Assembly: GCA_964609395.1 (NCBI GenBank)
Contig: CAZSRU010000007.1
Span: 47-64,046, forward strand
Direction of reading: 5' to 3'
Source of the DNA: an uncultured Victivallales bacterium
Lineage (GTDB): Bacteria > Verrucomicrobiota > Kiritimatiellia > UBA8416
DNA length: 64,000 bases
The notes under the pieces were generated by a model that saw only the letters and a list, made by a program, of their open reading frames with translations, was not told the origin of the DNA and searched no databases. The position numbers were made by a program, and so were the translations under genes. Position 1 is the stretch's first letter; each line of letters begins with the position of its first letter. Shown here piece by piece: positions 33,873-38,114 of the stretch.

Positions 33873-33888
33873 GTCAATTCCTCTATTT

Positions 33889-34230
33889 CTATTTTGCCCC
33901 GTAACGCGCAGGGGGTTCCGCGACGGCCATAGCCAAACGATTTTCCTTAACCGGCATGCGCCCTTCGAGGATATGCGCCACTTCGATGTCTTCATCGATT
34001 TCGGGCCAGTGCAGCATCCGTCCGCCGGCATAAACTTCAAAATGAGCCCGTTGTTTGCTGTTCGCCCGTGCAAGCCTCGGAAAGCAACGGAAGGGGACCG
34101 CCACACGGCGGCCATCGTCGAGGCAAACAACAAACTCCTGATCACCGACCACCAATCCTGTTGCCAGAGCGGTGTAGGCCATTCGCTTACTGTACAGCCT
34201 GTATCCATTAACATTGAGCACTGTGGGCAT
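33889..34230 (-). CDS. DUF2442-family small protein (orphan; no intact DUF4160 partner seen).
   Basis: [10 protein letters not shown]...[10 protein letters not shown]...[17 protein letters not shown] matches the DUF2442 pattern (..WPdlDEDisvegLL). Confidence 0.6.
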
Positions 34231-34279
34231 TAAATATCCTAGGCATTAACTTTAACGAAATTGGTCGTGATTTCACCGT

Positions 34280-34507
34280 CGCCCTACAATGGTATGGAAA
34301 TCCAATGCAACCGGCAAACGTTTTCTCCTCAATGCATATCCTGCTGGGAGCGGATCTGTCCCGCAATCCCATCCCGCCTTCCACGATGGCGGTTTCGGTT
34401 TCGGCGGGGTTGTCGATGATGCGGTCGATCTGGCGGTCGGAGGCGCTGTTCTGGGGTTCAAGCAGGTCGAGGATGTTCGGGTTCTGCTCCGCCGCTTTCT
34501 TCTTGTT
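34280..34507 (-). pseudogene. GC-rich coding-like remnant (KKKAAEQNPNILDLLEPQNSASDRQIDRIIDNPAETETAIVEGG...) lacking a start codon. It is a probable 3' fragment of a disrupted methyltransferase/R-M-type gene. Its core is ~90% identical to 46440-46516.
   Basis: The open frame begins directly after the exonuclease gene stop. Codon third positions are GC-rich, like the host. Shared core is gtcgaggatgttcggg.t.t.ctccgccgctttcttcttgtt. Confidence 0.35.
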
Positions 34508-35677
34508 TTAAATCATTTCTACCGACATGAAATCACTTACATGACATACCGCGATGCCATAGTCCCTTGCCTTCTCAATCTTGCCCGTGCGTGAATCTTT
34601 CTCACCGCAATTTACAAGTAAGTTTGTTTGCTTCGTAACATTAGCACTTGGCAAATACCCATTTTCAACAGCCCACGGGAACAGTGTTTCATAACGATCT
34701 ACAACAACGTCTTTTACCACCAGTTCATTTGTAAAGCATACGACTTTTAATCCAGGCACGATTTCTTTGATGAGTGTAAAATGCACGGACGTATTGAACC
34801 CGAAAAGGGTTGCAAGCTCCTCTAGGTCGGAAAATTCATCCCACGTGATCTTCCCGTCCTCATAGTAATCGGCGATTAGCCCAAGCATGGCCTTTCGTAG
34901 CTCATTTTGTGCAACTTTCTTGTCAATCTGGATGCTGGCGATCCGATCCATTTCGTTTGCATCAAAAACCCGATCTTCGCAGATTTCTTCTATCAATCGG
35001 TTGAACAAGTCAATGCTCACCTCATCCTTCCTGTCCCCCCATCCGTCGAATGCTTTCAAGCTATGTGTCGTTCTTTGCTTTGCTTTAACAGGGAACATGG
35101 GGTCGTGTTCATTTTGCAAAAAGCCACGATACACATCCATATCATAAATATGGCACGTATGCTTGACTCCCTCTTTCTGCTGAATCATGAAAAGTTCTCG
35201 AACCATGTTAACATCATCCTCAGCCTTATGTTCTTGAGTGATGTCAATGCCCCTTCGCTGCAAAGACTCATACAATCGATTGCCTCCCATGCCAAACCGG
35301 TGTTGCTCTGTCTTGCATGTGCAGATATAGCTCATTGGCTGGGGGTCAATTCCAGCAGCAAGGAATTCTGCGAATAGAAATTTAAGATCAAATTGAACGT
35401 TATGGCCGACAATAATTTTACCGAACATCTGATCGTACACTGTACGAGCAATCTCGGAGAACAACGGTGCACCTGTTATCATGTCGCGATCAATCCCGTT
35501 GATTTCAGTTATCCGTGCAGGTATTGGATGGCCAGGATCTATCAATGTCGTAAAACAACCACCGACTTTGCTGTAAATGCATATTTCCAGAATACCGCAT
35601 CCCCTCTTTGGGGAAAGTCCTGTTGTCTCAAGGTCTAGGAATACCAACTGATTCTCATCATTTTTTAAAAACATCAT
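34508..35677 (-). CDS. DnaQ-like DEDDh 3'-5' exonuclease fused to a C-terminal BRCT-like domain.
   Basis: Exo I FLDLETTGLSP, Exo II HNVQFDLKFL, Exo III H..AEDDV. The C-terminal ~80 aa (GLKVVCFTNELVV...NLLVNCGEKDSRTGKIEKARDYGIAVCHVSDF) has a BRCT-like pattern. The ATGATG start with AGGAG SD lies 20 nt inside the upstream channel gene. Low GC. Confidence 0.75.
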   Translation of the reverse strand: MMFLKNDENQLVFLDLETTGLSPKRGCGILEICIYSKVGGCFTTLIDPGHPIPARITEINGIDRDMITGAPLFSEIARTVYDQMFGKIIVGHNVQFDLKFLFAEFLAAGIDPQPMSYICTCKTEQHRFGMGGNRLYESLQRRGIDITQEHKAEDDVNMVRELFMIQQKEGVKHTCHIYDMDVYRGFLQNEHDPMFPVKAKQRTTHSLKAFDGWGDRKDEVSIDLFNRLIEEICEDRVFDANEMDRIASIQIDKKVAQNELRKAMLGLIADYYEDGKITWDEFSDLEELATLFGFNTSVHFTLIKEIVPGLKVVCFTNELVVKDVVVDRYETLFPWAVENGYLPSANVTKQTNLLVNCGEKDSRTGKIEKARDYGIAVCHVSDFMSVEMI

Positions 35678-36509: not shown

Positions 36510-36995
36510 GATACGGGCGGCCCAGGCGTTCATGGCAAGGCATTGCTCGCGGGTGTGCTTGGCGGGGGGGGGGCTTCTTCCGGCGGGCGGCAGGCGAGGA
36601 TGAGGAGTCGGCCTTGCAGGCAGAGGTCGAAGTACTGGCCGCGCGGCTTGAAGCAGGCGTCGAACCCGTCGGGCTTGATGAGTTAATCGGGGTAAGCTTT
36701 CAGTATGGCATGCCACAGGTCATAGACCAGCCAGCCGTCTTCGTTGAGCCGTGCGCGATTGTCGGCGCAATGGGCGAAGAGCGGGCGGCGCTCGTGGGTC
36801 GTCATCGTGATCATGTAGAAGGCGGGGGCTCGGTAGTCCTGGCAGGGGCTGCGGCGGTTCATTCACCCCTCCTTTGGCGGGGCGTGAACGCCCCTTGTGG
36901 GACTGGATACGCGCACACGCAGCAGACATGCGCCATCCGGCACGTGAGCCGTAATACAATCCCGATCCCGTGTTCACACGGGAGCCGCTGCCCGC
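36510..36995 (-). pseudogene. Internally deleted tandem copy of the RAYT-like gene. It retains the 3'-end fragment (36510-36680, ~170 bp, matching 37055-37225) fused to the promoter/5'-end fragment (36690-36990, ~300 bp, matching 37765-38085), and it includes REP-like hairpins.
   Basis: Direct comparison of the two copies. The truncated frame MNRRSPCQDYRAPAFYMITMTTHERRPLFAHCADNRARLNEDGWLVYDLWHAILKAYPD* stops after ~58 codons. Confidence 0.6.
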
Positions 36996-37001
36996 ACACG
37001 C

Positions 37002-37928
37002 TCATTCATTTTCCCCCATCCCGTGCAGTTCCGCGTCGGCGGCGGCGATGGCAGCGGCCCAGTGGTTCATGGCCAGGCATTGCTCGCGAGTGAGCTTGGC
37101 GGGGGCTTCTTCCGGCGGGCGGCAGGCGAGAATGAGCAGCCGGCCTTGCAGGCAGAGGTCGAAGTACTGGCCGCGCGGCTTGAAGCAGGTGTCGAAGCCG
37201 TCGGGCTTGATGAGGATGACTTCGCCACCGGCATCCAGTGCCGCGCGGGCAATGGCCTTTTCCCCCGGCGAGATGAAGGGCGAGACGATGACCGCGCCCT
37301 CGCCAACCCGCTTGAGCGTGGCCTGTCGCTCGGCGTCCAGTTCCGGTTGAGTAACCCGCCGCGAGACCCGCAGGGAATGCATCTCGGGTTTATCGAGAAG
37401 GAACAAGTTGCCGTAGCCCGTCCAAGGTTCGTCCGGCGGTAACCGGGCATGGCGAAGATTGTTGACACGGCGGAAAAGGTCGGGGTGCGCCTTCTTGAGG
37501 CAGTAGCGGCGGGGATTGTCGCAAAGGTAATGGGTATAGGCTTTCAGCGCGCCCCGGCGCCAGACGCACAGGTCGTGGTATCCGGGGCTCCACACGGTCA
37601 GTCTGGGATTTCCGTATTTCTTGCGCAGAGCGCTGGTGACCTGCGACTTGAACGCCCGCAAGGGCACACCCACGCTCTGTTGCATGCTGGCGGTCACCCG
37701 CACGATGCCGTGGAGGTGATCGGGCATGATCACCAGCGTGGAGAGCGCCACTTCGGGGTAGGTTTTCGGCATGGCATGCCATAGGTCATAGACCAGCCAG
37801 CCGTCTTCGTTCAGCCGTGCGCGGTTGTCGGCGCAATGGGCGAAGAGCGGGCGGCGCTCGTAGGTCGTCATCGTGATCATGTAGAAGGCGGGAGCTCGGT
37901 AGTCCTGGCAGGGGCTGCGGTGGTTCAT
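37002..37928 (-). CDS. HuH Y1 transposase of the IS200/RAYT (REP-associated tyrosine transposase) family with a ~160-aa C-terminal extension of unknown function. Start chosen at MNHRSPCQ with SD GGAGGT.
   Basis: IMPDHLHGIV (HuH motif) and AYTHYLCDNPRRY (catalytic Tyr / Y..NP motif) align with RayT LPEHMHCIW and DYRHHVDYIYINPVKH. REP-like hairpins GGGGCGTGAACGCCCC and CCCGTGTTCACACGGG lie upstream. Confidence 0.7.
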   Translation of the reverse strand: MNHRSPCQDYRAPAFYMITMTTYERRPLFAHCADNRARLNEDGWLVYDLWHAMPKTYPEVALSTLVIMPDHLHGIVRVTASMQQSVGVPLRAFKSQVTSALRKKYGNPRLTVWSPGYHDLCVWRRGALKAYTHYLCDNPRRYCLKKAHPDLFRRVNNLRHARLPPDEPWTGYGNLFLLDKPEMHSLRVSRRVTQPELDAERQATLKRVGEGAVIVSPFISPGEKAIARAALDAGGEVILIKPDGFDTCFKPRGQYFDLCLQGRLLILACRPPEEAPAKLTREQCLAMNHWAAAIAAADAELHGMGENE

Positions 37929-38085
37929 GAGTACCTCCGCTGGCGGGGCGTGAACGCCCCCCGTGGTACTGGATACCGGGTTCGCGCCGGCTCCGCCTTG
38001 GGCGCGAACGCCCCGTGCACGCCGCAGCATCCAGTTCCGGTCGCGTGTTCACACGGGAAGCCTTGCCAACTGCCGCTCATGCTTC
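37765..38085. repeat. Repeat B copy 2: upstream region and 5' end of the RAYT-like gene with REP-like hairpins (ggggcgtgaacgcccc; ggttcgcgcc...ggcgcgaacc; cccgtgttcacacggg). It lies directly after the atpG stop.
   Basis: ~90% identical to 36690-36990. The hairpins were read directly. Confidence 0.6.
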
Positions 38086-38114
38086 TGCTCCCATCTAGCA
38101 CAAACCGTCCTTTC

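Follow-up and report, generated by a model that had tools for sequence, protein, structure and literature searches.

Why should the F1 ATP synthase operon of a bacterium, expected to run atpA-atpG-atpD-atpC, be broken between atpG and atpD? This question is raised by a 64-kb stretch of DNA (referred to here as the window) that comes from the metagenome assembly of an uncultured member of the Victivallales (Lentisphaerota) and in which an insert of 4233 nt (33875-38107) splits atpA-atpG from atpD-atpC and in which all the cargo lies on the minus strand, like the atp genes. The original prediction, made before any comparison with other genomes, was that a ~4.2 kb accessory island interrupts the operon at this point, and all the genes that it listed were found in place. 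The most likely explanation, to which we give a probability of about 0.8, is that the insert is a recent mosaic insertion at a variable site.

The atpG gene was used to scan genome and metagenome collections, which gave 15 loci; the loci compared here carry labels such as L004, and L003 and L015 are 100% identical, being one 3.2-kb sequence present in two databases. The allele with the RAYT, channel and exonuclease genes described below was found in the window, L001, L002 and L029. The atpG-atpD site was empty in L004/L016, L005, L006/L017, L007, and L018-L024, which are about 10 related Victivallales/Lentisphaerae lineages. In these the spacer between the two genes is ~8-145 nt, which leaves no room for a gene, and a short spacer holds even for lineages with 37-55% atpG identity. 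In the closest relative, L004, blastn aligned the flanks with 91.8% identity over 41800-38108 of the window and with 95.0% identity over 33874-32224, and 2 nt alone were unaligned between these two blocks. The empty site of L004 reads TAG-GAAAGGAAAAC-ATG, with a spacer of 11 nt that is the same in L005, and the filled site in the window reads TAG-GAAAGGA/CGGTTTG...GGAATTG/AC-ATG, where the slashes mark the junctions. Since the insert is absent from close relatives, it is a recent, strain-specific insertion.

The junctions could be placed to the nucleotide. It had been predicted that the operon breaks straight after the atpG stop codon and that atpD resumes 16 nt after the cargo. The operon is indeed split there, but the 7 nt that follow the stop codon (GAAAGGA, 38114-38108, minus strand) are a remnant of the ancestral spacer, identical to the first 7 nt of GAAAGGAAAAC in L004 and L005, and homology to L004 ends at 38108. 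Similarly, there are 16 nt before the atpD ATG (33888-33873, minus strand), with the Shine-Dalgarno sequence GAGGAA and unlike the ancestral spacer, but alignment to the empty site of L004 shows that the AC directly before the ATG is original spacer and the insert ends at 33875. The left flank is atpG (38963-38115, stop codon TAG at 38117-38115, minus strand), which codes for an F1 gamma subunit of 282 amino acids (Pfam ATP-synt, E 1.6e-60) and is 86-89% identical to atpG of L003-L005. The right flank is formed by two intact genes, atpD (33872-32475, minus strand; 466 amino acids; Pfam ATP-synt_ab, E 9e-71), whose protein is 98.7% identical to that of L004, and atpC (32475-32188, minus strand; 95 amino acids; strong Pfam match). 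In the epsilon subunit, which has merely these 95 amino acids, the N-terminal beta-sandwich domain alone was matched.

Could the arrangement be a metagenomic chimera of atp fragments and DNA from another organism? The source is a metagenome assembly, and a repeat and a sudden fall in GC content occur within the insert, which would fit a misassembly. However, three contigs of 50-200 kb, drawn from several sources, show the same arrangement, and two Logan contigs from another run concur. One of these, L002, runs from atpG into the RAYT unit and the other, L029, runs through channel-exonuclease-DUF2442-atpD-atpC-cyclase, so that together they reproduce both junctions; their assemblies break within the tandem RAYT repeat and nowhere else. 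In addition, copies of the exonuclease protein are known from NCBI, JGI, Logan, and ENA, where their contigs reach 69 kb. Since both junctions are reproduced by independent contigs, the arrangement is not a chimera, and we regard an assembly artefact as extremely improbable.

Another explanation is that the F1 operon was split ancestrally, with atpAG and atpDC as natural separate units and the genes between them as residents. The gene order here is non-canonical in other respects: the F1 cluster is limited to atpA-G-D-C, atpH and the Fo genes are absent from its surroundings, and pdxA is divergent and upstream of atpA, as it also is in L004 and L006. In cyanobacteria and chloroplasts atpBE are separate from the other atp genes, and that split is ancient, conserved and provided with independent promoters. 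The window resembles that case in that the beta and epsilon genes stand apart from those for alpha and gamma; it differs in that the split is strain-specific and comes from inserted foreign DNA. Every relative with readable sequence, apart from L003/L015, which has another accessory insert, has atpD ~8-145 nt after atpG, and none shows a conserved separation of atpAG from atpDC, the finding that had been named beforehand as fatal to the prediction. The composition of the intervening DNA is foreign as well. The insert has a GC content of 54% against 62% for the window, and the lowest value in all 64 kb, 45% where the median is 62.5%, is that of the 2-kb segment from 34501. The GC content at third codon positions (GC3) is 0.84-0.90 in the atp genes, atpA (40622-38991, minus strand; strong Pfam match) included, and 0.46-0.59 in part of the cargo, which argues that this part is foreign. 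An ancestral split is therefore hardly credible. The insert is, all the same, a multi-step mosaic and not a single island.

Is the spacer also occupied in other strains? In the sister strain L003/L015, whose atpG is 89% identical to that of the window, there is no atpD within 1.4 kb after atpG. The insert there begins after TAG-GAAAGGAA, which places its left junction 1 nt from that of the window, and it was read over 1888-3264 of L003. It contains the opening 75 codons of a type IIG restriction-modification (RM) gene, which share 92% identity with the beginning of the RM gene in the window (50186-49972), an RM specificity-region fragment, an open reading frame (ORF) of 103 amino acids, a DUF4160-like tail and a DUF2442 gene that interrupt the RM fragments, and a strong hairpin that is present also upstream of the window's RM gene. 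Whether the DUF2442 gene of the window is the same as that of L003 was considered and rejected, as no similarity between them was detectable. Three alleles were therefore seen between conserved flanks, namely, empty, RAYT-channel-exonuclease, and RM-fragment-DUF2442. Because the insert in L003/L015 is different and its left junction is 1 nt away, the 11-nt atpG-atpD spacer is, judged from these alleles, a strain-variable hotspot between core genes in this lineage. A scan of the window revealed no transfer RNA or transfer-messenger RNA gene, so it is not a tRNA-targeted island, and an Rfam scan of the whole window matched no family.

The part of the insert next to atpG consists of two adjacent units related to RAYT transposases. 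The first contains an intact RAYT-like gene (37928-37002, minus strand) of 308 amino acids with a host-like GC3 of 0.81. Its protein matches NCBIfam REP_Tyr_transpos (NF047646) with E 6.9e-14 and 51.9 bits, below the cut-off of 80, and Pfam PF01797 with 17.6 bits, below the cut-off of 23. The residues H71 and H73 (H-x-H) and Y117 are invariant across an alignment of 58 RAYT-like homologues. With an AlphaFold model of the protein (pLDDT 89.5), Foldseek matched the first ~150 residues to ISDra2 TnpA (2xma, E 3.7e-7) and to E. coli RAYT (4er8, E 6.8e-6), and the last ~150 residues to DprA (4ljk, E 6e-4) and ShosA (8zva, E 3e-5). Going by the predicted structure, the protein is an HUH-Y1 (RAYT/IS200-type) enzyme fused to a DprA-like Rossmann domain that presumably binds single-stranded DNA. 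There are at least 783 homologues of ~300-350 amino acids in Lentisphaerae, Kiritimatiellia, and Verrucomicrobia (PVC bacteria), and no description of an HUH-Y1/RAYT-DprA fusion was found in the literature.

The leader of this unit (38095-37929, minus strand) contains hairpin A, a long imperfect hairpin, and hairpin B, followed by a GGAGG ribosome-binding site. Hairpin A (38056-38043) is CCGTGTGAACACGC, and its form in the conserved module is CCCGTGTGAACACGGG; the long imperfect hairpin is GGAACTGGAT...ATCCAGTACC, closed in the module form by GGGACTGGAT/ATCCAGTCCC; and hairpin B, GGGGCGTTCACGCCCC, is present in two copies (38014-38000 and 37960-37945). This three-hairpin module also precedes homologues of the gene in L008, L011, and L013, and hairpin B of L011 carries a compensatory change (GGGGTGTTCACACCCC). 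When folded as a single strand the leader was no more stable than shuffled sequences (z -1.04), and the case for its structure is therefore conservation together with one compensatory change and not energy. In L011 and L008 hairpin A with GGGACTGGATAC is found on both sides of the RAYT-like gene. Hairpins A and B were not found elsewhere in the window and are confined to the surroundings of the two gene copies. We do not claim that the left junction is an exact RAYT element end, as homology to other units begins only at 38091-38095.

The second unit is decayed. In its leader (37001-36863, minus strand) hairpin A occupies 36981-36968 and hairpin B occupies 36894-36879, and the direct repeats D1 and D4 that it shares with the first unit are 72-91% identical. 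The degenerate gene copy (36862-36498, minus strand) was assembled from tblastn pieces. Codons 1-59, followed by a stop codon (36862-36683), are 90% identical to the intact gene, codons 60-238 are deleted, and in the 3' piece (36682-36498) residues 239-270 are 97% and residues 276-298 are 78% identical, with a frameshift at a run of C; the last few codons are replaced, and the right-hand end of the unit is missing. The spacing of the repeats between the two units is 1066 versus 532 nt. Since the two copies are 86-95% identical, this is not a fresh duplication. Homologues (74-93% identity) are flanked by housekeeping genes that are unrelated to one another, coaX/prmA and lepB/hemE, at loci without identical copies or paired filled and empty sites, and the intergenic copies of this family stand directly upstream of co-oriented genes. 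From these features the RAYT unit looks like an IS200/IS605-like element of ~1.1 kb rather than a classical REP system.

Beyond the RAYT units the insert carries a pair of low-GC genes. The first codes for a Kv-type six-transmembrane K+ channel (36437-35658, minus strand) of 259 amino acids if the ATG at 36437 is taken as its start, whereas 36533 was the start chosen by the gene caller. It matches Pfam Ion_trans (E 3e-18; 66.3 bits, cut-off 25) and Ion_trans_2 (E 1.9e-16; 60.2 bits, cut-off 22.5), and the S4 arginine ladder RLIRIIRILRILRGIRSTR and the selectivity filter TTVGYGD can be read in its translation. The GC content of the gene is 47% and its GC3 is 0.55; the family is very large, with 6889 homologues, and homologues have 250-270 amino acids. 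The second gene, which overlaps the channel gene by 20 nt, codes for a DEDDh 3'-5' exonuclease of 389 amino acids (35677-34508, minus strand; Pfam RNase_T, E 5.5e-20) and has a GC content of 43.5% and a GC3 of 0.46. The exonuclease matches PADLOC PDC-S48 with E 1.8e-44 from residue 12 to 385 of 389 and from profile position 7 to 403 of 411. Its C-terminus, residues 303-384, is probably BRCT-like by sequence, and it has a weak PHROG match to a DNA-ligase C-terminus (E 8e-5). Searches with PHROGs gave only generic matches. A tblastn comparison of the exonuclease with collections of plasmids and phages gave no close relative, nothing but distant matches to the exonuclease domain (25-36% identity), so that no donor was identified. 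The last gene before atpD is a DUF2442 gene of 113 amino acids (34230-33889, minus strand; Pfam DUF2442, E 4.2e-14, 53 bits, cut-off 23.9), which has no DUF4160 partner, a GC content of 56% and a GC3 of 0.59. A proposal that the N-terminus of this ORF is a DUF4160 remnant was dropped because it had no Pfam support.

Traces of a type IIG RM locus are found between these parts. The exonuclease gene is followed by a non-coding stretch of 277 nt (34507-34231, minus strand) with stop codons in all three frames, and its first portion (34507-34414) is an RM-linked remnant that is 82% identical by blastn over 94 nt to 46506-46413. The counterpart there is a 49-codon ORF (46518-46369) downstream of the window's own type IIG RM locus. 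That locus, which lies 6.4 kb upstream of atpA, comprises an intact RM gene (47043-50183; PADLOC REase_MTase_IIG, E 9.5e-240) and then an MqsA-like antitoxin gene (46844-46539), and the GC content of 46001-48000 is 55%. Further low-GC stretches in the window, 4001-8000 and 56001-58000 (55-56% against ~62%), may be other acquired segments. In L013 (1-240) little is left of the RM gene: the first 27 nt run on in frame into the last ~40 nt (~13 codons). Directly after this fused gene comes a RAYT gene with 93% identity to that of the window, which suggests that the 3' tail of the RM gene is a place where RAYT units insert or with which they recombine. The corresponding RM tail sequence sits also between the two RAYT copies of the window. 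In L031 a channel gene 84% identical to that of the window is directly preceded by the C-terminal portion of a type IIG RM gene, and the sequence just upstream of the window's channel (..LDMAEENIYSAAV..) resembles the RM tail of L031 (..LDTAVAELYGVAT..).

Did the RAYT-like enzyme move the whole 4.2-kb block in one event, as a single composite transposon? There is a gene at the left end of the insert which, to judge from its motifs, codes for a catalytically intact HUH-Y1 enzyme, and its family occupies varied intergenic sites upstream of co-oriented genes. Yet the hairpin-A end, which is on both sides of the gene in L011 and L008, is missing at the right end of the insert; the insert falls into three compositional classes; RM remnants lie between the RAYT copies and again after the exonuclease; the two copies have diverged by 5-14%; and homologues of the channel have other partners, and no RAYT, beside them. 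A one-step composite transposon is thus quite improbable. What we infer instead is that the insert was built stepwise in the 11-nt spacer from four kinds of material: two adjacent IS-like (insertion sequence) RAYT units of ~1.07 kb, one intact and one decayed; the horizontally acquired low-GC pair of K+ channel and overlapping exonuclease; the leftovers of a type IIG RM locus; and the DUF2442 gene. An RM-linked channel/nuclease cassette would have come first, and later RAYT-like units would have inserted and recombination would have deleted most of the RM gene.

If the operon was split in this way, how are atpD and atpC transcribed? A sigma-70-like site (40678-40651) with 10 of 12 matches lies upstream of atpA, a weaker promoter-like site lies upstream of the channel gene (36502-36474), among other weak ones in the cargo, and a search of the 300 nt ahead of atpD gave none. 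The untranslated stretches of the insert have no predicted intrinsic terminator; both of the terminator-like matches on the minus strand fall within coding sequences, those of the channel and the exonuclease, and 3 matches were counted in all against 7.1 in shuffled sequences. Since the cargo is co-oriented and there is no intrinsic terminator in its untranslated stretches, read-through is plausible. Transcripts from the atpA promoter, from promoters in the AT-rich cargo, or from both would probably cross the insert into atpD-atpC, which are intact and appear to have a rebuilt ribosome-binding site. On these sequence features we put the odds of read-through transcription into atpDC at about even.

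A different view of the same features is that the insert is inert debris, decaying and without function, and is tolerated since atpDC has its own promoter. The three remnants, namely, the second RAYT copy, the RM tail, and the 277-nt non-coding stretch, fit this view, as does the fact that the insert contains no validated defence system. On the other hand, four ORFs, those of the RAYT-like protein, the channel, the exonuclease, and the DUF2442 protein, are intact with conserved catalytic or selectivity motifs, the overlap of the channel and exonuclease genes is preserved, and the lack of a promoter-like site within 300 nt upstream of atpD is not what this view would predict. We therefore consider inert debris possible but rather unlikely.

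Could the cargo of the mosaic insertion serve in defence? Its defence content amounts to one candidate, PDC-S48, and the RM remnants; the RAYT-like, channel, and DUF2442 genes have no PADLOC match. Homologues of the channel (L030 6001-8347; L031 951-2919; L033 436-5664) have as neighbours the tail of a type IIG RM gene, a PDC-S37 helicase or a reverse transcriptase. In the two closest channel homologues, L030 and L031, the downstream gene, which is overlapped by ~23 nt, codes for a SAP-domain protein of 511 amino acids; a FokI-cleavage assignment for this partner in L030 was not retained because it was weak (E 0.02, below the cut-off). A third homologue adjoins the PDC-S37 helicase (E 3.8e-287) and a fourth has no obvious defence neighbour. 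With five channels sampled and no background control, these neighbourhoods hint that defence islands are where channels of this clade reside, and a channel with exchangeable partners may form a defence module. A bolder reading is that the spacer is a targeted landing site for defence-type cassettes that use the strong atp promoter, that the channel and its exchangeable partner are an undescribed two-gene anti-phage module linked to type IIG RM, and that the HUH-Y1-DprA enzyme remodels the site; we regard this combination as speculative and unlikely.

Several observations weigh against the account of a stepwise insertion at a hotspot, with its read-through transcription and possible defence role. 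No target-site duplication was recognisable at the insert junctions, and neither an integrase nor a recognisable att site was found that would account for two different inserts in one spacer. The 16 nt at 38107-38092 have no detectable homology to RAYT units, so that RAYT-mediated insertion at this place is only a possibility. The L003/L015 allele is a single 3.2-kb sequence that ends before the atpD side. As for transcription, promoter-like matches were not enriched over shuffled sequences (5 against 3.0 +/- 1.9), and two untranslated C-rich and G-poor stretches on the minus strand (36682-36560 and 34489-34400), with C/G ratios of 2.0-2.7 in 78-nt windows, could load Rho and impose polarity on atpDC. 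As for defence, PDC-S48 is a candidate family only, on which no literature was found, and among ~20 close exonuclease homologues (54-62% identity) those in L025-L027 have no channel neighbour, so that the pairing of channel and exonuclease is not a fixed system.

These results mean that even a tight spacer within the operon of a core energy enzyme can serve as a strain-variable site for foreign genes, with the consequence that the beta and epsilon genes come to lie 4.2 kb downstream of those for alpha and gamma. If read-through does occur, the cargo would gain free constitutive expression, the cell would still have to hold the stoichiometry of the F1 subunits, and the locus would be a natural experiment on operon polarity. 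Two poorly described families have also surfaced, the HUH-Y1/DprA-like fusion, which is widespread in PVC bacteria, and the Kv-type channels beside defence-type genes, and these fusions and channels with exchangeable partners could prove more novel than the island itself.

How does the locus compare with known systems? The RAYT-like units resemble IS200/IS605 elements and RAYT proteins (2xma, 2vjv, 4er8) in the HUH-Y1 fold with its invariant H-x-H and Tyr, in the small size of ~1.1 kb, in the conserved hairpins beside the gene, and in the occurrence of homologues in scattered intergenic sites. They differ in that the protein, which ends in a DprA-like domain, is twice as large as usual, scores below the NCBIfam and Pfam cut-offs, and has neither dispersed REP copies in the 64 kb nor a TnpB partner. 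The exonuclease resembles PADLOC PDC-S48, a single-gene DEDDh exonuclease candidate, over the full length of the profile, and differs from the homologues in L025-L027 in that a Kv-type channel gene lies upstream and overlaps its gene. For the locus as a whole, a search of the literature on islands or hotspots in atp operons found nothing relevant, and the best comparison is with the core-gene-flanked hotspots for defence or accessory genes described for P. aeruginosa and E. coli (PMC10250203, PMC10121019). The likeness lies in a fixed core-gene position that is empty or variously filled, in RM fragments and a PADLOC defence candidate as cargo, and in the fact that no integrase within the islet is needed. 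The differences are that the site lies within the operon of a single enzyme complex, in a spacer of 11 nt, where the known hotspots separate independent core genes, and that only three alleles are seen, with none of the cargo a validated defence system. The closest known kind is thus the variable core-gene hotspot, and what is unusual is a site inside the operon of one complex and without an integrase; the islet is unusual in its place and ordinary in its kind.

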